64,000 nt of DNA from Escherichia coli (GTDB taxonomy: Bacteria; Pseudomonadota; Gammaproteobacteria; Enterobacterales; Enterobacteriaceae): assembly GCF_041248615.1 (NCBI RefSeq), contig NZ_CP158426.1; one strand, 5' to 3'. Shown here one piece after another: positions 20,520 to 33,317 of the stretch. The translations under genes were made by a program, and so were the position numbers. How positions within the stretch are numbered: the first letter of the stretch is position 1; each line of letters opens with the position of its first letter. The notes under the pieces were generated by a model. It was not told the DNA's origin and ran no database searches. It saw only the letters and a program-made list of their open reading frames with translations.

Positions 20520-20599
20520 AACCAAACGACTCGGGGTGCCCTTCTGCGTGAAGGCTGAGAAATACCCGTATCACCTGATCTGGATAATGCCAGCGTAGG
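20520..20599 (+). repeat. Left 80-bp direct repeat (attL-like); copy of the thiM TPP-riboswitch aptamer sequence
   Basis: aaccaaacgactcggggtgcccttctgcgtgaaggctgagaaatacccgtatcacctgatctggataatgccagcgtagg is identical base for base to 33185-33264. Confidence 0.9.
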
Positions 20600-20654
20600 T
20601 TGCCAACATTCTGATTAGTATTCATGTGGTTACATTTCTTTTTGTCCGTGTGTA

Positions 20655-21986
20655 ATGCACCTAATGTACAAAAAGAGCGTAAACATGAGGTACAAAACTC
20701 TTCCATACACGTTTCAAAGAAACGGTAATTACTATCTACAGATTCGGCTTTCGAATGGTCGGATGTATAAAAAATCACTTCTCACTGACAGCTATCGTGA
20801 AGTCTCTGCTTTGATGATTGGTGTTGCTCCGTACATTCCTTTTGTTAAATCATTAGCCATCACAATCCCGATGTTTGATGCCTTTGTTTCAAACCTGATT
20901 ATGTCAAAACTTAGGGCTGTAAAAGTTCCGCTGCTATCACATCAGTCGGTAATTACCCCTGCTACATTCGAGGAACCAGCGACACAAGCCGAACCGCAAA
21001 ACATGCTAACTCTTTCTGATGCGTGGGCTATGTATAAAGCGGAAAAGGGTAAAACATGGACAAAGTCGATCTCAAGGGCGAATGAGCGTTACATGGAAGT
21101 CTTGATGGTTGTCTTGGGAGAGACAACTGACGTAGTTGCGATTTCTAAGCAGGACATCAAGCAGGTGATGGAAGTTGTTGAGAATTTGCCTAAGCGTGTT
21201 GTCCAACCGTATCGCTCAATGAACATCCAGCAACTGATTGAATGTGATGATGTATCACCGAATGAGTTAGTAGGAGTGGAAGCCATTCATAAGCATCTCA
21301 AAATCTACAAATCGCTTTTCAAGACTTTTCTAACAGAAAACAAAGATATTTTGATTAAATCCCCAACTGATGGGGTAGTAGCAGCACCATCTAAAGCAAG
21401 GTTTGGAGCATACAGTTCGGCGGAGATGAAGAAGTTTGTAGAGTGGGCACTTAAGCAGCCAGATGGCTGGCAGAAGTGGATAACATTGTTGTTGGCATAC
21501 ACAGGAGCCAGAAGGGGAGAAATTGCCAAACTGGAAAAATCACAAATAAAATATGATGAGGATAGCCATCGGTATTATTTCCTGATTGCAGAAGGAGGGC
21601 AGGGGAAAACCGAAAATGCTACCCGACAAGTAGTGATACACCCTAAGTTGATCGAATGGGGTTTCATGGAATACGTTGATCGCCAGTGGAAAGAACGGAT
21701 TTTTTCAGAAGTGGCTGGTACAAACATGACGAAGATCGGTAAAGAATTTGCTGATGTGCGTGACCAGCTTGACATTCCGTACTTAGACGATTTTGGACAG
21801 CGGAGGCTTTTGCATAGCATTCGTCATTCTGTTTGCTCTACTGCGATGGCTGGATGGGTAAAGAACATCTTGCATCTGCAACAAACAGTAGGCCATGAGA
21901 AAAGTGGAGGGATCACTAAACGCTACTTACATACGTTCCCACTATCATCAATTTGTTATGTTATTGATGGGATTAGTTGGGTCTGA
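20655..21986 (+). CDS. Tyrosine-type site-specific integrase (island integrase); start may be at MRYKTLPY (20685)
   Basis: C-terminal catalytic signature: AYTGARRGE (box I Arg), HSIRHSV (H-x-x-R), ITKRYLH (Tyr nucleophile). Sits directly next to the left repeat. Confidence 0.85.
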   Translation: MHLMYKKSVNMRYKTLPYTFQRNGNYYLQIRLSNGRMYKKSLLTDSYREVSALMIGVAPYIPFVKSLAITIPMFDAFVSNLIMSKLRAVKVPLLSHQSVITPATFEEPATQAEPQNMLTLSDAWAMYKAEKGKTWTKSISRANERYMEVLMVVLGETTDVVAISKQDIKQVMEVVENLPKRVVQPYRSMNIQQLIECDDVSPNELVGVEAIHKHLKIYKSLFKTFLTENKDILIKSPTDGVVAAPSKARFGAYSSAEMKKFVEWALKQPDGWQKWITLLLAYTGARRGEIAKLEKSQIKYDEDSHRYYFLIAEGGQGKTENATRQVVIHPKLIEWGFMEYVDRQWKERIFSEVAGTNMTKIGKEFADVRDQLDIPYLDDFGQRRLLHSIRHSVCSTAMAGWVKNILHLQQTVGHEKSGGITKRYLHTFPLSSICYVIDGISWV

Positions 21987-22203: not shown

Positions 22204-23106
22204 GTGGATATGTTACTACCAATACGAGTTCATAAACGATTTCTAACTTTATTTAAGACTTTGCAAATTGACGATTGCCCACCGCAATCAACTTTAAATA
22301 TTCATGTACTTAATATCGAAAGCAATGAATTTATATACTGTAAATTAGTTGAAGAATTACGTGACATAATAATTACTTATGTACATTCGAATAGAAGGCT
22401 TGAGGAGTTTAAGGAAAGTTATCCTTCGTATAGCCCTAAACCTTTTTTCGAAGCAATACAAAAATTTCGCAATTATACGTCAAACGAAGGTGAGTTAGGT
22501 GAACTGCTTTTATACGCTTTTCTTGAAACAGGACTAAATGCTCCGAAATTACTTTCCAAAATGCAATTGAAAACAGATTCTAATGATTACATTAAGGGTT
22601 CTGATGGTGTACATCTGTTAGAATTAGATGATGGTTATCAATTAATATTTGGAGAATCAAAGCTCTATGCCGATCTTTTAGAAGGTGCTCGAGAAGCGTT
22701 TGATTCTATTTTAGATTTTAAAAGTAATGGAATGGCATTTGAAAGAGGGCTGATAGATACACACGTTATAAATGAAATGGTTTCAGAAGAAGGTTATGAG
22801 AAAATAAAATCAATTCTTCTTCCTTCTTCTGGCGATGATGGGCCAGATCTTGATTTATCCTTTGGTATATTTCTTGGTTTTGAATTGAAAATAGATAGCT
22901 CACAGTTATCATTGAAAAACAAAGAGTTTAGAGATTGGGTTAATGAGTCCGTGAAACAACATGCTACTCGCGTGGTCAGTACGATACGAAGGAAAATTAT
23001 TAATCATAAATTATATGGTCACGAATTCCACATATATATAGTTCCTTTTACCGATATTGATGTTACACGAAAAAAATTAATTCATGAAATGCTAACAATT
23101 AAGTGA
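22204..23106 (+). CDS. PD-(D/E)xK nuclease-like protein, HamA (DUF1837)-like candidate; start GTG 22204 or ATG 22210
   Basis: Motifs in the order expected for the restriction-endonuclease fold: acidic helix EGELGELLLYAFLE, then SDGVHLLELDDG, then LIFGESKLY (E-x-K). AT-rich; stop overlaps the start of the next gene. Confidence 0.55.
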   Translation: MDMLLPIRVHKRFLTLFKTLQIDDCPPQSTLNIHVLNIESNEFIYCKLVEELRDIIITYVHSNRRLEEFKESYPSYSPKPFFEAIQKFRNYTSNEGELGELLLYAFLETGLNAPKLLSKMQLKTDSNDYIKGSDGVHLLELDDGYQLIFGESKLYADLLEGAREAFDSILDFKSNGMAFERGLIDTHVINEMVSEEGYEKIKSILLPSSGDDGPDLDLSFGIFLGFELKIDSSQLSLKNKEFRDWVNESVKQHATRVVSTIRRKIINHKLYGHEFHIYIVPFTDIDVTRKKLIHEMLTIK

Positions 23107-25691
23107 ACACTATGAATGAATTAAATTCAAGTAAAAACATTCATTTGGCAGCTCGTCTTGCAGATGATGCTTTTGAAAGTGCTTATTTTAAAGAAATCAA
23201 TAAGTTTATAAGTGGTTTATACAATTACAGTTTATTTAACTGCGATTCAGATGTTAGTCTCTCCGAGAGTGATAACAATAAAATAGCACACGCTTTGCGT
23301 TTTGCAGATATATTTTCACATTCTTCAAAAGAAAATCATAGATCATGTGCATTTGAAATTATAAGTAGAATAGCCTTATTAAAAAAACATGATCCTTATT
23401 TTAAATTTATAGGTACTGCTGTTATTAATCGGCTTGGGGTTTATGCAGCAGAAAAACTCATATCAAAAGGGGTAAAATTACCCTTAGATAGAGAAGTTGA
23501 TTCTATTATTAAAAAATCAGTTCAGAAAACAGATGAAGATGGAGTATATTTCACTGATAAACAACATGAGTTATACAAACTTTTAAAAAGTAGCAAAACA
23601 ATTAGTTTTGCTGGTCCCACTTCGATGGGAAAGTCATTTGTTATTAATGCATACATTAAGGAAATAACTCTTAAAAAAGAGCTTAAAAATATAGCTTTAA
23701 TTGTTCCTACACGGGCTTTAATAAGCCAAAATGCACTTAAGTTAAAAATTGATATTGCATTGTATAAGAATGAAAGCCCTTATAAAGTTGTTACGACATC
23801 CTACATTATTAATGGTGATGAAAGTAAAAATAAAGGCTATATTTTTATTCTCACCCCAGAAAGGCTGGTTAGTCTCATAAGCACTATTCCTGGACTAATG
23901 ATTGATTATGTTTTTGTAGATGAAGCTCAAAAGTTAACAACAAAAAATGATTCGAGGAGTCTTGTTACTTATTCAGCTATAGAGCAAACAATTAGTAAAA
24001 ATCCTGAGGCAAGATTATTCTTCTCTTCACCTAATTTATCTAATCCTGAAATATTTAATATTTTGTTTGATAGAAAAGACGCTTCGGTATATAGAAATAC
24101 AGAAGGTGCAACTACTCAGAATATGTATTTTATTGATCTTTTAAATAGCAGCTTTAGCTATGTTAATACCGAGAAAAGGACGCTTGAAAAAATAGATGAG
24201 ATCTCTAATACTTACACGAATACAAATGATGTTATCTATAAATTAAATAATGGTAAAAGTAAAATAATTTATTGTGGGGGGATAGAAAGCACGCTTGAGA
24301 GAACACGTAGCTTTATCAATTATCTCAAAATTAATAAGAAAAAAAGAAAGCATTTAAATTTAGAAATATCTTCTGAGATAAGAAACTTTGTTCATGATAA
24401 CTATGAACTTGCAGAAGCCATCAACTATGGTGTTGCTTTCCACTTTGGAAACTTGCCTCAATCGATTCGAGATTTAATTGAGCATCATTTCAAAATAGGA
24501 AATATTGACTATCTATTCTGTACATCAACCCTACTTGAGGGAGTCAATTTACCTGCAAGATCCGTATTTATTCTTACGCATAAAAAAGGCCCCAGTCCAT
24601 TAGAGTCGGTTGATTTTTGGAATCTGGCTGGGAGAGCTGGGCGATTATCTATGGAATTGTCAGGGGATATTTTTTGTATTAGGGATGATAATAAGCTTTG
24701 GAATAAAAAAGCTGTTGATAATATCCTTCTGTCTGACAAAAATAACATTTCATTAAAGCCAAGCTTCTATATTGAAGACGAAAAAAGATTGAACGATTTA
24801 CACCATATAATTACGACTGGTAAAACAGGGAATATTAAAAATGCTGAGTTCCTTAGAACTTTAGGAGATATGATAAGAATAGACACTCTGAGGGATTCTA
24901 AAGAACTTCCTCTTATTAGTTATTTCCAAAGCAGTGGAAAATCAGAAATTTTGTTAAGTGCAGAAAAAAGCACTGAAAATATTACCATGCCAATGAATAT
25001 CCTTTTGGCAAATAGTCATATTGCGATTGATTCGCAGTATCATGCTTTTAAAAAAATAAAAAGCCTTACAGTTAAGGAACTGAAATTATCATGGCAGCCT
25101 ACATACGAAGAAATTAAAGAAAAATTGAATTTGATATTCGATATTTACCAAGTTGAAAAGTTTGCAACAGGTAGAGAACGTCTTTATTTAAATTCAATTC
25201 CATATTATGCAGTATTACTGTTTCAATGGATTCGTGGAAATAGTCTACAGGAAATTATCTCGGGGGCAATTGCTTATAGAAAGAACAAAAGTATATATAT
25301 TAAAAATACACCTGTTCTTTTTGACAGCGAAAACCCAGCTCATTTAACTGCATTAGTTAATGAAACTATAAAAGACATTGAGTTGCGTGTAGGTTACCAG
25401 TTACAAAATTATTTTTCACATTACTGTCAGCTTCTGAATTATGTGTTACAAGGAAATCCAGGGGCAAACTGGTCTCAGTTCATTGAGTTTGGCTCTAATG
25501 AGCCAATAGTATGGCACCTACAAATGATGGGCTTTTCAAGGGATAGTGCAGTTTTTCTCAAGAAGAATTTTTCAAAACATCTTAAACTTGATAATGAAAT
25601 GAATAAACTCATCATAATGGATAAGGAACTGATCAAGCGTTCTTTCAAAAAAGATGGACTACATTACTTAGAAATCCAATCGTTATTATAA
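23103..25691 (+). CDS. Superfamily-2 helicase (DEAQ box), HamB-like candidate
   Basis: Walker A/motif I FAGPTSMGKSFV, motif II VFVDEAQKL, motif VI-like NLAGRAGRL; about 170-aa N-terminal extension before the helicase core; GTGA start/stop overlap with the upstream gene. Confidence 0.6.
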   Translation: MNTMNELNSSKNIHLAARLADDAFESAYFKEINKFISGLYNYSLFNCDSDVSLSESDNNKIAHALRFADIFSHSSKENHRSCAFEIISRIALLKKHDPYFKFIGTAVINRLGVYAAEKLISKGVKLPLDREVDSIIKKSVQKTDEDGVYFTDKQHELYKLLKSSKTISFAGPTSMGKSFVINAYIKEITLKKELKNIALIVPTRALISQNALKLKIDIALYKNESPYKVVTTSYIINGDESKNKGYIFILTPERLVSLISTIPGLMIDYVFVDEAQKLTTKNDSRSLVTYSAIEQTISKNPEARLFFSSPNLSNPEIFNILFDRKDASVYRNTEGATTQNMYFIDLLNSSFSYVNTEKRTLEKIDEISNTYTNTNDVIYKLNNGKSKIIYCGGIESTLERTRSFINYLKINKKKRKHLNLEISSEIRNFVHDNYELAEAINYGVAFHFGNLPQSIRDLIEHHFKIGNIDYLFCTSTLLEGVNLPARSVFILTHKKGPSPLESVDFWNLAGRAGRLSMELSGDIFCIRDDNKLWNKKAVDNILLSDKNNISLKPSFYIEDEKRLNDLHHIITTGKTGNIKNAEFLRTLGDMIRIDTLRDSKELPLISYFQSSGKSEILLSAEKSTENITMPMNILLANSHIAIDSQYHAFKKIKSLTVKELKLSWQPTYEEIKEKLNLIFDIYQVEKFATGRERLYLNSIPYYAVLLFQWIRGNSLQEIISGAIAYRKNKSIYIKNTPVLFDSENPAHLTALVNETIKDIELRVGYQLQNYFSHYCQLLNYVLQGNPGANWSQFIEFGSNEPIVWHLQMMGFSRDSAVFLKKNFSKHLKLDNEMNKLIIMDKELIKRSFKKDGLHYLEIQSLL

Positions 25692-25999: not shown

Positions 26000-26575
26000 T
26001 CAGCGTTTGATGCCGCTAATACTGGCAAGCATTTCTTTCTTCACACGAAAAACTGTAGCCCTGCCGCAATCACATAACTTTGCTATCTCGTCTGGTGTAT
26101 TCTTCCCGGCCTGTAACATATCGATAATCTTGTTATGTAGCTCTTTGTTCTTTTGCTTGCCCTTGTACTTCTTAGCCTCTTTAGCAAGAGCAATCCCCTC
26201 ATTGCGACGAGATGCGATCATACCCCGCTCAAATTCTGCAGCGGCTCCCATCATGGTTAGGATAAGGCGTGATTGTGGGGAATTATCAAAACTCATAGAG
26301 TTTGCAAGGAATTGAACAGTGATTCCACGAGCCACGAGGTTATCAATCATTTCCAGCAAATCGCGGGTATTACGTGCAAGGCGATCAATCGAGTGAGTAA
26401 CGAGCGTGTCACCTTCGCGGAGGTGTGAAAGCAGGTTCAACAATTCAGGTCTTTCGCTGGTGGACTTACCTGATTCTTTCTCTGCCACAATTTTGTCACA
26501 AACAGGTTCCAGCACTGCCAACTGACGCTCAAGATTTTGATCCTTTGTTGAGACTCTCGCGTAACCAAAAATCAT
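26000..26575 (-). CDS. Serine recombinase (resolvase/invertase family)
   Basis: N-terminus MIFGYARVSTKDQNLERQ (catalytic Ser in YARVST context), C-terminal HTH-like tail; 191 aa. Confidence 0.85.
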   Translation of the reverse strand: MIFGYARVSTKDQNLERQLAVLEPVCDKIVAEKESGKSTSERPELLNLLSHLREGDTLVTHSIDRLARNTRDLLEMIDNLVARGITVQFLANSMSFDNSPQSRLILTMMGAAAEFERGMIASRRNEGIALAKEAKKYKGKQKNKELHNKIIDMLQAGKNTPDEIAKLCDCGRATVFRVKKEMLASISGIKR

Positions 26576-26600
26576 TTTCCTGCCCTCACTTACGTGAAAA

Positions 26601-26662
26601 GTATCATTTGAATTTACTTAATGATACAGTATCATTTAAATGCATTCAACATCTAAATGATA
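26601..26662. promoter_or_regulatory. Cluster of three dyad-symmetric elements upstream of the serine recombinase gene (res-like site)
   Basis: GTATCATT-11 nt-AATGATAC; TGATAC-A-GTATCA; ATCATTTAAATG...CATCTAAATGAT. Position immediately 5' of the resolvase start is typical of res sites. Confidence 0.45.
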
Positions 26663-27081
26663 CTAAACGAGACGAGAAAAGCGAGTATCGTTAGGGAGTA
26701 CCCAAAAGAGATTTTTGATCGTGCGTTTTTTAGTCAATGTAGGGTTAGTGAAAAGTTCAGTACCGAGATCTGAGTTCACGGCATTTTGTCGACGGGGTTG
26801 AACCTGATTAGGCGAACGAGATTTTAAATCAGGCGGAATAAAACAAGTTGTACTTTTATCTGAGTAAAAGATCCCTTTAACTTTTTAGTCAGAAATCGTG
26901 ATACTAGGGGTTTGGTTATTTTGTGTCCTTAAGGCCAGTACTTTTAGCGAGGACGAAAAAACGGCCTACATGAGAACGCTTACAGTAACTTAAGTATATT
27001 ATCCAAAAAGTCACTTAACTTAAATCAATTTGGATGCAAAATCGCCACACTTTGCAAGTGAACACATACCGGGCAACAAGC

Positions 27082-27109
27082 AAATAAAAAAGGCCACTTT
27101 CGCGACCTT
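27082..27109 (-). terminator. Rho-independent terminator after the 119-aa gene
   Basis: Minus-strand RNA: AAGGUCGC-GAAA-GUGGCCUU (GNRA tetraloop) followed by UUUUUAUUUG. Confidence 0.65.
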
Positions 27110-27125
27110 GTACCAGTACAAACAC

Positions 27126-27485
27126 TCATTCAGAACGATCAAGTACCATATATGCTGGCTGACACATGCTGCCCCGCTCCTGTAGCCAGTAGTAATCAAG
27201 ATCGGCAACACGCACGTCCAATCCAGAATCTACACGGTTGATCTGTAACCGTAGCCCTACAGTATCCTTGTACGATAAACCAGATTTAACATTGTATTTG
27301 TACTTAACACCGTTTTCCTGTTCAAACTGTTTAAGGAAAGGCGTCATTTGTTTCTGAATTTCTTTCAAACAAATAACCTCATTATCAATAGCAAAGGGGG
27401 GTTCTGTTTTTCCATCAGGTACAGCAGCCTGTAAATGAAAGGAAGTACTCAACAATAACAGCATTGCAACAGAAGTCTTTTTCAT
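27126..27485 (-). CDS. Small secreted/periplasmic protein of unknown function
   Basis: Sec-type signal peptide MKKTSVAMLLLLSTSFHLQA; 43 bp downstream of the membrane-protein gene, same strand. Confidence 0.6.
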   Translation of the reverse strand: MKKTSVAMLLLLSTSFHLQAAVPDGKTEPPFAIDNEVICLKEIQKQMTPFLKQFEQENGVKYKYNVKSGLSYKDTVGLRLQINRVDSGLDVRVADLDYYWLQERGSMCQPAYMVLDRSE

Positions 27486-27528
27486 TTTAATTCCTTATTA
27501 AAGAACAGTACATTATATTTCAATGGAC

Positions 27529-28569
27529 TTAATAACAATATTTTATATTTCCTTCGGGTTTTCTCATGCATTTAATTCCTTCAGGAATATAATCAGTTAC
27601 GGGAGCAGGTCTGGCATCAGGTCTTGAAAGACGATTGGATATAGAAGACAACAGACTGAAAACACACTCATTAAATGATTTTTGATATTTATTTTTTTCA
27701 TAAAAGTACTGCATGGTGATTTTATCTCTTTCGTATTGCAATTCTTTGCCAAGCTGAATCCTATCCATATCAATTCCATTTCTCATAGCATTAAATCTTT
27801 CGTTCAATAAATTAAATTGAGATTTATTCCATTCATTTAAAGGAAATAAAGAATTGTTAAGCCTTTGCCTACAATTAGATTGCTCGATAGCTGACATGTA
27901 TTCTTTCATACTAACGCCAATATCTAAGTATGTGAGTTGTCCAGCAGTTCTATCAACTGAGTTATTAGGGTAAGATTTAATTTCAGTAAGTATTGACTCT
28001 GTTAATACTGCATTTTCTTCTAAATCTTTGCTAATAGTTATTTGAGCTTGTTCTCTTTTATCCTTATCAAATATTGAAATGTATTTCTTTACTATATCCT
28101 GATTAGCTTTCTCGGCTGCTACTAACGCATCTTGAACCTTCTTTTCCGCCGCTTTAACTCGTTGTTCTTCTACAAATTTCGCGTAGTCATCAGTATTTGT
28201 AATGTGATTTTCACGAGCGATAGAAAACTCTTTACTATCTTTAAAACCAAGTTTTTGTGCTCTGGCTCCATCGCTTGAAGATCGGGCAGAACTTGCCACG
28301 AAAGCGAGCACAATGATCAGTACAGGAACCGTATAATTATTAACGAGTTTATAGGGTAAGAACTTCGCTTTAAGCGTACCATAACCCAAAACAGCCCAGC
28401 CTATCGCGGCAGTACTTGCCAGTAGCTGGCACAATCCAGCGACGGAAAGCATGATTACCGACCAGAAGCCTGTACCGACTGCGAAAAGATCACCAAATTT
28501 CTCCATTGACGCAAGGAATAAAAACACTCCCCAAATGCCATAAAATCCTATTTTCAAATATTTACTCAC
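27529..28569 (-). CDS. Inner-membrane protein (3-4 N-terminal TM helices) with coiled-coil-rich soluble C-terminal domain; function unknown
   Basis: Hydrophobic segments in the first ~100 aa; charged helical region (EEQRVKAAEKKVQDALVAAEKANQDIVKK); AT-rich codon usage. Confidence 0.6.
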   Translation of the reverse strand: MSKYLKIGFYGIWGVFLFLASMEKFGDLFAVGTGFWSVIMLSVAGLCQLLASTAAIGWAVLGYGTLKAKFLPYKLVNNYTVPVLIIVLAFVASSARSSSDGARAQKLGFKDSKEFSIARENHITNTDDYAKFVEEQRVKAAEKKVQDALVAAEKANQDIVKKYISIFDKDKREQAQITISKDLEENAVLTESILTEIKSYPNNSVDRTAGQLTYLDIGVSMKEYMSAIEQSNCRQRLNNSLFPLNEWNKSQFNLLNERFNAMRNGIDMDRIQLGKELQYERDKITMQYFYEKNKYQKSFNECVFSLLSSISNRLSRPDARPAPVTDYIPEGIKCMRKPEGNIKYCY

Positions 28570-28779
28570 CGCAATTATCCTTTAATAATTTTCCAAATCG
28601 ATGGTTCGTTCTATTTGTATTATCGACAATAATTCGTTTGCCTTTAGGTAGATCCCTTAAAAAGGAATCCCCCCAAAATTTATAGATTAGCAGTTGTACC
28701 ACTCTCACTGTTTTGTCACTCCCATTATCTTCTCTCAGGTCAAAAGTACGGACTTAAAGCCGTCCGTGTTCAGGTGCTC

Positions 28780-28900
28780 AAGAGTAGCACGCATATCAAT
28801 AAATGATCGATAAAAACGATCAATTAATGGCTTATTGATCGCTATAACCTATCAATGACTATTAATTCAATACAAATCAATAGGTAAAATCGATCAAGAG
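28780..28900. repeat. ATCAAT/GATC-rich iteron-like cluster in an ORF-poor region
   Basis: About six ATCAAT (or complement) motifs in both orientations and several GATC sites within ~120 bp; further GATC pair at 29096-29103. Confidence 0.4.
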
Positions 28901-29552
28901 GATTCGTCATCCATGAAAGGGGTTATGTATCTGATTTCAATACAGGGAGTATTAGCGATACCATCACGCAAACGCTCTTAAAGCGTAGCTACGGCGTTTT
29001 GTAGGGTTTTTGGTCATTCATGTGTGTCAGTAATGAACATCGCATTCAGGGGCTTCCTGTGCGTTTTGTCCGAAACACCATCATGAAGGGGGACAGATCG
29101 GATCGGGGTCGCTTCGCTCTGGTCAGTACTGGATAGTTCTTTTCCAGTAACTGAAACCGCAGATACCCCACTAAGTACACAAAGGAATTATTTGTAGAAT
29201 AAGTAATGAAATAACAGTCAGTTATGTACTTACTGACAGAACTAAAAACGCGATTAGGTTCGCTCTGTCAGTGACCGAAGGGAACGCAACAGTAGAATCT
29301 AATCCAGCGAACAGTACACGCAAGCGGGTGCTGTTTAATTGTTTTATCTATGTAAACAATGGGATAGCTATCAAGTACTCACTGCGTGAGCACTCTCACT
29401 AACTACCCGAAACAGTTCGCTTGCTTCGCCGCTCCTACTTTCAGGTAGTTAATTCGCTTTCGCTCGTTGTGATGTCCGAAATTTATTACCTATAGTATTA
29501 TAAGGTATTATTTTCCGGACATTTATGTATTTTTATGATGGTGTTCTGGACA

Positions 29553-31028
29553 TCATTTTTTGCTTTTTTGTACTTCCTTTTCGTATTTGTTCCACATAGC
29601 CTTTTGCTCTTCGGGACTGAGTGCTGTATTACCACTGGCAAGAAACACCTTGAACGCTTCTAACTCAAGCCCTGGGTTGCGGCTTTTCCAGCGGCGAAAA
29701 CGCTTAGCGTGATTATCATCAAGAGTGAAACGCTTTTGCTTATTCTTTGAACCTTGCGGCCTGCCTCTCGACCTCTGCTCATCATCAATACCGATATCTA
29801 TATACTCAATATTATCTGTAAGAGATCTGGCTTGCCATTCATCAAAAACATAAACAGTCTGTGTTTCAGTACTGTCAAAATCCCTTGAAATTCCTCGTAG
29901 TACGAACTGGTGTAAACTTTCGTACTCCCTCGCAACATGTATCGCCTCGCCGTCAATCTCAAAGAACAATTCGCACTGTTTAGCCTCTGTTTCAGAGGGA
30001 CGCATACAAGCGAGCCAGACGCACGTGAGCAAGTGTTGGTACTGGTTAAACCCTCTGGCATCCGGGCTTATCTCTGTGCCGTTTTTGAGGCTCTGAGAAT
30101 CGCTTTTGTTCTTCGTCCAGTAGAAATCCTGTCCCTCAAGTTTTTTATCAATAAATGAGTATATTTTTTGTACTTTATCAGGGTTATTAGTCTTCCATGT
30201 CTTCGATAGTTTTTGATTTTTTGAGAAGTAATAAACCTTTAATCTGTCTTTGAGAGCTGTTTTTCGTGTCAGTAATCCTCCAAGTTCAGTACTTTCAAAG
30301 AGTTCTTTATTGCCTTTATAGATCAATGAATTTTCGAAATTAGCTCCGAGAAAGGTGATTGATACGTCTTTGTACTTACTGAGATCTTTCCATGCGGTAA
30401 TATTAAGCTGTTCCTTTTTCGCATCGGTAAAGTACTCATTATTCATGATGAACATATCATTTTCGTTAATTGCTGGTAGCTGGTTCAAAATATTCTTCAG
30501 TACTTCCCCTTGTATTTCTGGTTTTCTTTCTGCCGCAATATACATATTTTTATCATCTAATGTCAGTACATTGTGTATTAATGAATTAAGAATTGTATTT
30601 TTTATATTAGTATCACCCTCATTAATATTCTGAAAAGAGTGAAAATTAGTAACGTCGTCAATATAAATATTACAGTCAGATAACAATTCAGGAGGAATTT
30701 TGAAAAACGTTTTATCTGTTATGAGTAATGTTTTATTACTTCCAGATGAAAGAAAGTTAATAACTGAATTAATAACACTTTCATCTTTTGGTACTGTATC
30801 TGTAATTATATACTCGCAATTATTGATTTGCTTTGCTGTCTGCTTAATAAGTTCTTGAGTGTTCTGTACTAAAATATATTTTTCAGTACTGTTATTGATT
30901 ATATTGCATATAGCAGTAGTTTTACCTGAACCACAAGGGGCGGAGACATACTTAAATTTATTATAAATAGGTGTGGGATTAATCATTTGTACACGCTCCA
31001 TATTGATTAATGTAGAAAGGTCAGCCAT
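29553..31028 (-). CDS. P-loop NTPase with basic C-terminal tail containing an AT-hook-like RGRP motif; function unknown
   Basis: N-terminal Walker A SAPCGSGKTT, Walker B-like NIYIDDV; C-terminus RSRGRPQGSKNKQKRF. Confidence 0.6.
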   Translation of the reverse strand: MADLSTLINMERVQMINPTPIYNKFKYVSAPCGSGKTTAICNIINNSTEKYILVQNTQELIKQTAKQINNCEYIITDTVPKDESVINSVINFLSSGSNKTLLITDKTFFKIPPELLSDCNIYIDDVTNFHSFQNINEGDTNIKNTILNSLIHNVLTLDDKNMYIAAERKPEIQGEVLKNILNQLPAINENDMFIMNNEYFTDAKKEQLNITAWKDLSKYKDVSITFLGANFENSLIYKGNKELFESTELGGLLTRKTALKDRLKVYYFSKNQKLSKTWKTNNPDKVQKIYSFIDKKLEGQDFYWTKNKSDSQSLKNGTEISPDARGFNQYQHLLTCVWLACMRPSETEAKQCELFFEIDGEAIHVAREYESLHQFVLRGISRDFDSTETQTVYVFDEWQARSLTDNIEYIDIGIDDEQRSRGRPQGSKNKQKRFTLDDNHAKRFRRWKSRNPGLELEAFKVFLASGNTALSPEEQKAMWNKYEKEVQKSKK

Positions 31029-31370
31029 TCCAGTGTCTGGCCTTTCGTTGTTTTAGTTATTAGTCTTTTTGAGTTGCGACAACTGCAAGAGAATGTTTAT
31101 AAACAAGTGAAATAAGCAGTTTTACCGCCTCAAAAGCTACAGTCAGTTTCGTAATTATTTTCGAAAGCATCGTAAATTTCACTTCGCTATCTTCTATGCA
31201 AAAATTAGCAGCCTGAGGTATTTAATGATTGAGATGTGGCCTGTTGATAAGAGGGTTTGTATTGCTTGTTCTGCTCTTTGTTAATTTGTGACTTATTCCT
31301 TTCACAATGATCGGCTATGTTTGATAACTCTGTTAGGAAATCACCTATGGCTACCATATTGGATTTGCCC

Positions 31371-32276
31371 CTATATTTCCAGACACCTGTTATCACTTAA
31401 CCCATTACTGGCCTGCTGCCGCAGATATTCCCGTGGCGAGCGATAACCCAGTGCACTATGCGGATGCCATTCGTTATAATGCTCGAACGCCTCTGCAAGG
31501 TTCTTTGCTGCCGTTAACCCGTCTGGTTTAGGCATGATACTGATGTAGTCACGCTTTATCGTTTTCACGAAGCTCTCTGCTATGCCGTTACTCTCCGGAC
31601 TCCGCACCGCCGTGTTCTTCGGTTCAAGCCCCAATATCCGGGCAAACTGCCGTGTTTCATTAGCCCGGTAGCATGAACCATTATCCGTCAGCCACTCTAC
31701 TGGAGACGCCGGAAGCTCGTTGCCGAAGCGGCGTTCCACCGCTCCCAGCATGACGTCCTGTACTGTTTCACTGTCGAAGCCGCCCGTAGTGACTGCCCAG
31801 TGCAGTGCCTCACGGTCACAGCAGTCCAGCGCGAACGTGACTCGCAGTTTTTCTCCGTTATCACAGCGGAACTCGAACCCGTCAGAGCACCATCGTTGAT
31901 TGCTTTCTTTCACGGCCACTTTGCCAGTATGTGCCCGTTTCGATGGCGGTACAGCGGTTTTTCGCTCAAGCAACAGCGCATTCTGGCGCATGATCCGGTA
32001 AACACGTTTGGCATTGATCGCAGGCGTACCATCAAGTTCGGCCTGTCTGCGAAGCAGCGCCCATACCCGACGATAACCATACGTGGGCAGCTCTCCGATA
32101 ACATGGTGTATACGGAGAAGCACATCCGTATCATCTGAGTGACGGCTGCGGCGACCATCTTTCCAGTCATCGGTTCGTCTGAGAATTACGTGCAACTGCG
32201 CACGCGACACCCGGAGACAACGGCTGACTAAGCTTACTCCCCATCCCCGGGCAATAAGGGCGCGTGCGCTATCCAC
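31371..32276 (-). CDS. insD: IS2 transposase OrfB (InsD), DDE domain
   Basis: 301-aa ORF recognised as IS2 InsD; overlaps insC in the -1 frame as expected for an orfAB frameshift fusion. Confidence 0.9.
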
Positions 32277-32599
32277 TTTTTTGCACGCCCGTATTCAACG
32301 GCTTCTTTAAGGAGTTCATTTTCCATCGTTTTTTTGCCGAGCAGGCGCTGGAGTTCTTTAATCTGCTTCATGGCAGCAGCAAGTTCAGAGGCAGGAACGA
32401 CCTGCTCTCCTGCGGCCACAGCAGTAAGACTTCCCTCCTGGTATTGCTTGCGCCAGAGAAATAACTGGCTGGCTGCCACACCGTGTTGCCGGGCAACAAG
32501 GGAGACCTTCATTCCCGGTTCAAAACTCTGCTGAACAATAGCGATCTTTTCCTGTGTAGTACGCCGTCTGCGTTTCTCCGGTCCTAAGACATCAATCAT
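32234..32599 (-). CDS. insC: IS2 OrfA (InsC), HTH protein
   Basis: [56 protein letters not shown]...; start taken at MIDVL (ORF track begins 45 nt upstream). Confidence 0.9.
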
Positions 32600-33184
32600 C
32601 TGCTCTCCAATGACTAGTCTAAAAACTAGTATTAAGACTATCACTTATTTAAGTGATATTGGTTGTCTGGAGATTCATGGGGCCAGTCTACATATAATCA
32701 TGTTCATCTTCTAATTCTTTAAATTTTAATAGAGAAATCTCTTCATAATATTCTTTCATTTTCATATAAATCACCTTTTATTTTTTTGTTGTTAACACAG
32801 GTTTTTTTCTGCACTACACATTATAGCACATAGAATTAATTCGTTTCATTTTCTGTCAATGAAATAGAGTAAAGATAAATGCTTTTATAAAGCACTTATC
32901 ACATCCGTTGCCTTGCTATATATAAAAAGTTCTCCAAACTATACTGGTGTATATTTTCCCCATCAGATACAGTTGTTTTTAAACATTACAATGTTGGATT
33001 CTTGGTTCCAAATAAATCGAGCAACTATTAGTGTTTCAAAATGAAGTTGGGAGCTATTCCTTAATTCGTATGAGGTACAAAATGGGGTACTCGGTGGGGT
33101 ACAGCGTGTATAAGTGACGTCACCACGGGTAAACTTGCATCGGCGAGCAACTTAACCTAAGCTGACAAAAATTAAGAGAAATGT

Positions 33185-33317
33185 AACCAAACGACTCGGG
33201 GTGCCCTTCTGCGTGAAGGCTGAGAAATACCCGTATCACCTGATCTGGATAATGCCAGCGTAGGGAAGTCACGGACCACCAGGTCATTGCTTCTTCACGT
33301 TATGGCAGGAGCAAACT
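33185..33317 (+). promoter_or_regulatory. thiM TPP riboswitch (thi-box aptamer plus expression platform); its first 80 bp are also the right direct repeat (attR-like) of the island
   Basis: Sequence ...cgactcggggtgcccttctgcgtgaaggctgagaaatacccgtatcacctgatctggataatgccagcgtagggaagtcacggaccaccaggtcattgcttcttcacgttatggcaggagcaaactATG matches the recalled E. coli thiM riboswitch. Confidence 0.9.

Follow-up and report, generated by a model that had tools for sequence, protein, structure and literature searches.

T4 Imm and Sp and HK97 gp15 are superinfection-exclusion proteins of the inner membrane, and T4 Sp is a membrane-anchored periplasmic inhibitor of the phage tail lysozyme. SieA of P22, a prophage protein with three transmembrane (TM) helices, likewise acts in exclusion at the inner membrane (PMC10883804). 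Proteins of the DUF1311 class have been reported to confer immunity against periplasmic, cell-wall-targeting effectors of type VI secretion systems (T6SS) (PMC12981562, PMC12135965), and ScwA of Salmonella, a periplasmic, disulfide-bonded protein with an LprI domain, controls the levels of murein hydrolases without being an inhibitor of lysozyme (PMC7933661). Escherichia coli also harbors 'integrase-only' islands that carry defense genes and whose mobilization is unclear (Hochhauser et al. 2023, PMC10121019). Here we analyze a 64,000-nucleotide stretch of E. coli DNA (NCBI RefSeq assembly GCF_041248615.1, contig NZ_CP158426.1), hereafter the window, and within it a two-gene operon that encodes a membrane protein of 346 amino acids (aa) and a secreted protein of 119 aa, which we call Sec119. 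The operon lies in an island at thiM and recurs in the conserved core of related islands; superinfection exclusion, or another form of envelope-level protection, is the function that we infer to be most plausible for it.

Both genes of the operon are under purifying selection

The operon consists of the following features:

28569..27529, minus strand: 346-aa open reading frame (ORF) with a GTG start and an AAGGA Shine-Dalgarno sequence 8 nt upstream
27485..27126, minus strand: ORF of the 119-aa secreted protein Sec119, with an ATG start and AAGGA 6 nt upstream
27109..27090, minus strand: intrinsic terminator of the operon, AAGGTCGC-GAAA-GTGGCCTT followed by TTTTATTT (U-tract)

An initial annotation of the window, made from its letters alone, had described a membrane-protein gene, a secreted-protein gene 43 bp further on and a strong tetraloop terminator after them. 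This layout is present on the minus strand, where the stop of the 346-aa ORF and the start of the 119-aa ORF are 43 bp apart, the two genes share one orientation and the terminator closes the pair. The terminator stem has eight pairs, two of them G.U, under a GAAA loop and is a good match to an intrinsic terminator, but its stability is not out of the ordinary (folding z-score of -0.8 in a 61-nt context). Both ORFs are genuine genes. They are kept across Enterobacterales and are under purifying selection, with overall ratios of nonsynonymous to synonymous divergence (dN/dS) of 0.07–0.27 (0.18–0.27 for the N-terminal module of the 346-aa protein and 0.07–0.13 for the mature 119-aa protein).

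Neither protein had been recognized in the initial annotation, and neither matches a known family: scans of both against Pfam, NCBIfam, PADLOC and PHROGs returned nothing significant. The hidden Markov models (HMMs) of PADLOC-DB v2 gave 0 families for both proteins at E≤1 and matched the neighboring HamA/HamB strongly. Sequence and profile searches of the PDB with the pair found no relative, and tblastn with three queries (both proteins of the pair and P0232) matched none of 50,697 phage records, while a plasmid search gave one partial match, on a Pantoea megaplasmid. When 1.84 billion representative proteins were searched exhaustively with an HMM, 34 representatives only were recovered as relatives of the 346-aa protein, and a Foldseek search of its model against AFDB50 recovered its own family only. 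For Sec119, a profile search for distant relatives gave close Enterobacterales homologs only, among 120 listed of 215 matches, and a Pfam scan of it returned no match even at E≤10, PF07007 (DUF1311/LprI) included. The AFDB entry A0AAU7IF23, which is 96% identical to the 346-aa protein, bears the label DUF4407; the corresponding Pfam model, PF14362, is matched neither by the query nor by 51 family members, and the label looks unreliable. Searches of the literature on thiM or ppdD islands with an integrase or serine recombinase, and on DUF4407, found nothing relevant.

The two proteins are predicted to act in the membrane and periplasm

The AlphaFold2 model of the 346-aa protein is all-helical and confident, with a predicted local distance difference test score (pLDDT) of 92. 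Consistent with the N-terminal TM helices of the initial annotation, three are predicted, at residues 3–29, 35–63 and 80–107. They are followed by a short helix, a 39-residue Ala/Glu/Lys-rich stalk helix (126–164), a compact bundle and a tail containing Cys, and what had been called a charged coiled-coil C-terminus is better described as this single stalk helix with a compact four-Cys helical bundle. Two parts of the protein can be set apart:

28120..28569, minus strand: N-module (residues 1–150), three TM helices and a conserved juxtamembrane segment, running into the first part of the stalk helix
27529..28074, minus strand: C1 domain (residues 166–346), a helical bundle with four invariant Cys; the exchangeable part

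The juxtamembrane segment of the N-module reads 'KLGFKDxKEF..ARENNI..DYAKF', and the invariant cysteines of C1 are C233, C302, C334 and C345. The N-terminus and the loop at 64–79 are both K-rich and satisfy the positive-inside rule. From sequence and model together, this N-terminus and loop are probably cytoplasmic and everything beyond residue ~96 periplasmic. Independent support for a periplasmic C1 comes from the protein P0239, which lacks TM helices and in which C1 is preceded by a Sec signal peptide and an LprI domain. The model of the 346-aa protein has no cytoplasmic domain and hardly any cytoplasmic residues, which makes abortive infection through cytoplasmic signaling, one of the functions that the initial annotation had put forward, unlikely. 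Since the functional residues are all predicted to lie in the membrane or the periplasm, the module must, if the prediction is right, act there.

The Sec signal assigned to the second protein was also found, and it is a typical signal peptidase I (SPase I) peptide spanning residues 1–20 (MKKTSVAMLLLLSTSFHLQA, with AVPDG following the cut). Cleavage falls between HLQA and AVP, with no Cys at +1 and no lipobox. Mature Sec119 carries two invariant Cys and is 84–88% identical across genera. Its model places a helix against a four-stranded antiparallel sheet (pLDDT 77–89 in the mature part), for which a cystatin/NTF2-like alpha+beta fold is predicted. Fold matches are weak.

Two slots vary independently by recombination

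The N-module is 70–83% identical among proteins whose C-domains are unrelated. At least three unrelated C-domains are attached to it: the helical C1, a Cys-rich beta-type domain of ~95 aa found in 257-aa proteins (C2) and a Cys-free, beta-rich domain (C3), besides others. None of them shows a toxin fold or a delivery domain, generic helical-bundle matches being all that was returned. C1 is in turn found behind a different, two-TM anchor, as well as fused to LprI in P0239. The second gene is one of three, coding for the 119-aa type, an LprI/DUF1311 protein or a 107-aa helical type with two Cys (Sec107). By Pfam and PGAP, PF07007 LprI/DUF1311 proteins fill this partner slot in loci L008, L028 and L017, and in L017 a Sec107-type domain is fused to the LprI domain. 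The pairings seen are C1/Sec119, C2/Sec119, C1/LprI, C3/LprI, C1/Sec107 and C2-like/Sec107. The identity of the C-domain and that of the second gene thus vary independently, which argues against a cognate toxin/immunity pair, another of the functions initially proposed.

Within the same genes, synonymous divergence (dS) is 2.1–3.0 in C1 and 0.37–0.47 in the N-module, so that C1 is 5–6x deeper, and this gap identifies the genes as recombinational mosaics. A second mark of exchange may be preserved just upstream of the present start codon:

28562..28708, minus strand: apparent fossil second 5' end of a membrane-protein gene, a 48-aa ORF starting MRVVQLLIYKFWG

The predicted product of this ORF matches the N-terminus of an alternative allele type. 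It is present in C1-type loci (L008, L020) and not in C2-type loci, and by its sequence it looks like a recombination footprint at the 5' end of the membrane-protein gene.

The pair belongs to the core of an island family

The mobile-island setting assumed in the initial annotation is borne out by an integrase, by 80-bp direct repeats at both ends and by a GC content of 29–43% against ~50% in the flanks. The window is chromosomal DNA with 100% identity to E. coli strain NRZ14408. The island is 12.7 kb long, and its order is tyrosine integrase, HamA/HamB, serine recombinase, the 119-aa gene, the 346-aa gene, 983 bp without ORFs, a P-loop protein gene and an IS3-family element. Positions 26024–31068, from the recombinase to the P-loop gene, are 96% identical to 19127–24169 of L001, a ppdD island that has other cargo and a large serine recombinase in place of the tyrosine integrase. 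The same 5-kb block in a thiM and a ppdD island indicates that core modules have been exchanged between differing integration machineries. In Klebsiella/Raoultella the block occupies another site and is accompanied by SMODS/DUF4326/DUF488 cargo. Islands at yggR with a large serine recombinase are either cargo-free (L008) or carry a STAND ATPase (L027), an island at the ffs locus (L028) has no cargo, and islands of more distant species carry RT/8xMP or Hcp-DUF4225 cargo (the latter in L018). Hachiman, too, is among the cargo of other loci. In the cargo-free islands L008 and L028, the pair is the sole content besides recombination and replication genes. Where cargo is present, its slot lies between the terminator of the pair and the recombinase gene, or past the recombinase gene.

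The pair recurs beside different integrases, at different sites and with different cargo, as well as in islands free of cargo and in a prophage, which shows that it is core and not cargo; the view of it as an ordinary cargo module of a mobile island gives way to a place in the conserved core, adjoining the cargo slot. The prophage (L014/L026; GCA_032059205.1, next to msyB) is complete and siphophage-like, with a large serine recombinase. Near its integrase end follow an HNH gene, a homolog of the P-loop protein (31% identity), a gap of ~0.9 kb, a C1 membrane protein and a Sec107-type protein, and the module has the large serine recombinase on one side and, on the other, the genes for TerS, TerL, portal, capsid and tail. 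From this arrangement the islands look like reduced derivatives of a prophage lineage, and the L014/L026 prophage is likely a living relative of their ancestor.

The module is present in ~1% of complete E. coli genomes and is always chromosomal; a narrower alignment of the N-module used as the search query gave 7 loci. Nearly all homologs examined lie in integrase/recombinase islands or in prophage, and not among housekeeping genes or outside mobile contexts. The two exceptions are L019 of Pantoea sp. A4, in which the pair stands alone between yffB and acrD with no recombinase, and L025, a truncated copy with no recognized backbone gene.

Other features of the thiM island

Upstream of the operon lies a stretch without ORFs that is as conserved as the genes:

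28570..29552, minus strand: ~1 kb of non-coding DNA that separates the operon from the P-loop gene, conserved at 83–88% nucleotide identity to Klebsiella loci

It is found in 54 E. coli genomes, is unannotated in RefSeq and has no Rfam match. Its most conserved part (28803–28897) holds three palindromes resembling TTGATCG-N7-CGATCAA and five GATC sites, and the palindromes surround a possible promoter, TTGAAT-18-TATAGC. A hairpin with a T-run follows at ~28745–28766. Possible roles for this stretch are those of an operator/promoter, a res site or an origin. As to the last, an iteron or tandem-repeat origin was considered and rejected, as tandem repeats are absent and the candidate motif is not enriched.

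The remaining features of the island are these:

20520..20599, plus strand: left 80-bp direct repeat and island end, inside a thiamine pyrophosphate (TPP) riboswitch copy at 20522–20617
33185..33264, plus strand: right 80-bp direct repeat and island end, inside the thiM TPP riboswitch at 33187–33283
20655..21986, plus strand: tyrosine integrase of the island
22204..25691, plus strand: complete Hachiman system, the variable cargo of the island (HamA 22204–23106, HamB 23103–25691)
26000..26575, minus strand: 191-aa small serine recombinase, resolvase/invertase-like, at the other end of the conserved 5-kb block
29553..31028, minus strand: 491-aa P-loop protein, with a weak ResIII/DEAD match in the Walker-A region, a weak CyRepA1 match and phrog_2467
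31371..32644: IS3-family element separating the P-loop gene from the right end of the island

Insertion within the TPP riboswitch upstream of thiM duplicates 80 bp of that riboswitch, and the two repeats are perfect. The duplication leaves two TPP aptamers that score in Rfam, the one before thiM with 71 bits and the one at the integrase side with 58, and an Rfam scan of the island returned these two copies only. At the same thiM site, other E. coli strains have a NACHT-domain protein as cargo in the place of Hachiman. The IS3-family element is missing from otherwise identical islands of other strains, which match at 93% coverage.

The P-loop gene is linked to the pair always. Its product carries the annotation 'DEAD/DEAH helicase' or 'type III restriction R subunit', yet its Walker-A region alone matches; it also has an RGRP AT-hook-like segment at its C-terminal end and may be a replication or mobilization protein of the island. 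The invertase-like recombinase raised the thought of a shufflon-like invertible segment, and this was discarded, there being no alternative C-domain encoded nearby on either strand.

Weighing the possible functions of the pair

Of the functions first proposed, exclusion at the envelope is the most plausible. On the evidence of sequence comparison, structural models and analogy, we tentatively favor an envelope-level exclusion or immunity-type shield. The operon would then be a two-component module active in the envelope only, carried as a constant payload by small prophage-derived integrative islands. Its first protein would sit in the inner membrane with the N-terminus in and the C-terminus out, where a stalk of ~6 nm would hold a disulfide-bonded helical bundle out in the periplasm, and its second would be a soluble periplasmic protein with a cystatin/NTF2-like fold. 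Each of the two would bind or inhibit something entering the periplasm from outside, and candidate targets are the machinery with which a superinfecting phage delivers its DNA or pierces the cell wall, or the cell-wall-targeting toxins that competitors deliver. The host, and hence the island, would be shielded at the envelope with no cytoplasmic signaling, and recombination would alter specificity by swapping the C-domain on display and the soluble protein that accompanies it. A protective role is favored because variation in both genes takes the form of whole domains or genes being replaced, because the module is tied to prophages and defense islands, because LprI/DUF1311, a reported immunity class, recurs in the partner slot, and because prophage inner-membrane exclusion proteins such as P22 SieA give a precedent. 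Combinatorial variation of the pair is also what one would expect of proteins confronted with a variable agent from outside, and the weak fold matches point the same way.

Several points weigh against such a shield. By sequence comparison, both families are without homology to any characterized exclusion, immunity or defense protein. The N-module is conserved beyond the needs of a plain anchor, which suggests a membrane-level activity, and the cross-genus identity of Sec119 is more in keeping with a conserved partner than with an arms race. Core membership also means that the pair could serve the element's own life cycle and not the host. The target may be either a phage or a bacterial toxin.

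A role in the life cycle of the island, the main rival, could for instance take the form of entry exclusion against sibling elements, of interaction in the envelope with a helper phage or conjugative machinery, or of release control, and the variants of C-domain and partner would then mirror helper or exclusion-group specificity. What speaks for such a role is that the recombinase, the P-loop protein and the ~1 kb of conserved non-coding DNA always accompany the pair, that the pair is present in cargo-free islands and in a complete prophage, and that the movement of 'integrase-only' islands is unexplained (PMC10121019). Yet the islands lack conjugation and packaging genes, the stand-alone Pantoea islet retains the pair with no recombinase, and the VirB8-like similarity is that of the generic NTF2 fold, and we regard this explanation as unlikely. 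A prophage origin also raises the thought of a leftover lysis-control cassette, holin/antiholin- or spanin-like, in degenerate islands: the module lies upstream of the terminase genes in the full prophage, and a TM anchor with a periplasmic helical stalk superficially resembles an i-spanin. This is highly improbable, given that the second gene has no lipobox, that no endolysin adjoins the pair, that no PHROG lysis family matches, that the sizes and the three-TM topology are atypical, and that strong purifying selection persists in islands without virion genes.

A variable C-terminus on a conserved N-terminal part, with a small gene downstream, is the classic layout of a polymorphic toxin, and the membrane protein could on that model be a pore-forming or otherwise toxic polymorphic effector, with the secreted protein as its antidote or regulator, or the two could form an abortive-infection module. 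While LprI/DUF1311 proteins do act as immunity proteins elsewhere (PMC12981562), each partner type here serves more than one C-domain (Sec119 with C1 and C2, LprI with C1 and C3, Sec107 with C1 and C2-like), P0239 joins LprI to C1 in cis, there is neither a secretion or delivery domain nor an enzymatic fold, and PADLOC is without a match; such a module is distinctly unlikely. The LprI-domain proteins in the partner slot, together with the precedent of ScwA (PMC7933661), would also suit a physiological and not a defensive task, namely the tuning of endogenous peptidoglycan hydrolases or of envelope homeostasis. The window's own partner, Sec119, is however not an LprI protein, and combinatorial shuffling and restriction to mobile elements fit homeostasis poorly, which leaves a task of this kind quite improbable too.

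Returning to protection at the envelope, a more far-reaching form of that reading is possible, if doubtful: the pair may represent a new class of envelope-level defense, a recombination-shuffled, two-slot periplasmic 'shield' made of a tethered displayed domain and a soluble inhibitor-like protein. A new family of mini-islands derived from prophages, which may be satellites, would then have the pair as its constant payload and would carry cytoplasmic defense systems as well, with the variants of the pair setting specificity against phages or periplasm-acting toxins. If envelope protection is what the pair provides, it would add to the defense islands of Enterobacterales a periplasmic layer that is invisible to PADLOC, Pfam and NCBIfam. 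The 'integrase-only' islands would gain a recognizable core (P-loop protein, 1-kb non-coding region, pair and small serine recombinase), usable for finding these islands and for studying their movement, and the independent swapping of the two slots would amount to a natural experiment for mapping specificity. Should the module serve island transfer instead, it would offer a handle on how the islands are mobilized.

Comparison with known systems

Like the 'integrase-only' islands, the setting of the pair combines an integrase/recombinase with defense systems, has no other recognizable mobility genes and is found in ~1% of complete E. coli genomes. The main text of PMC10121019 differs in that it does not describe this core and makes no mention of thiM, rcnR, ppdD, nadC or a serine recombinase.

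The pair resembles polymorphic toxin cassettes in that a conserved N-module is joined to one of at least three unrelated C-domains, with a small gene downstream, and in the marks that recombination has left at the 5' end. It departs from them in that the choice of second gene is independent of the C-domain, that the N-module anchors the protein by TM helices and is not a secretion or delivery domain, and that a toxin fold is absent. A two-component spanin like Rz/Rz1 was considered and rejected, as gene 2 has no lipobox Cys at +1 and gene 1 has three TM helices against the single one of an i-spanin.

Likenesses are also found with periplasmic DUF1311/LprI immunity proteins, such as Etsi4 of enterohemorrhagic E. 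coli (EHEC), and with acquired immunity clusters for interbacterial defense that mobile elements carry. The second gene of sister loci encodes a Sec-exported LprI/DUF1311 protein, P0239 is an LprI-C1 fusion, and the module is borne by a mobile element beside defense genes, with Hcp-DUF4225 cargo beside it in L018. Unlike these systems, the window has in Sec119 a partner that is not DUF1311, its first gene is without a counterpart in known immunity loci, and no effector-like gene flanks the pair in any locus examined.

SieA-type exclusion proteins resemble the locus in being encoded by mobile elements or prophages as small, 'moron'-like operons with a terminator of their own; the 346-aa protein likewise has about three predicted TM helices and an island and prophage context. 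The two are set apart by the lack of any sequence or profile similarity, with no homology to SieA types A–C and the FxRYPxEAxxFNK motif being absent from the 346-aa protein, and by size, since the 346-aa protein is twice as large and carries 250 residues of periplasmic stalk and bundle. The 346-aa protein has in addition a soluble periplasmic partner, and both parts are swapped combinatorially. In the libraries and literature searched, both protein families, their two-slot combinatorial organization and their core position in a family of defense islands appear undescribed; in kind, the locus is known, as an envelope module encoded by a mobile element.

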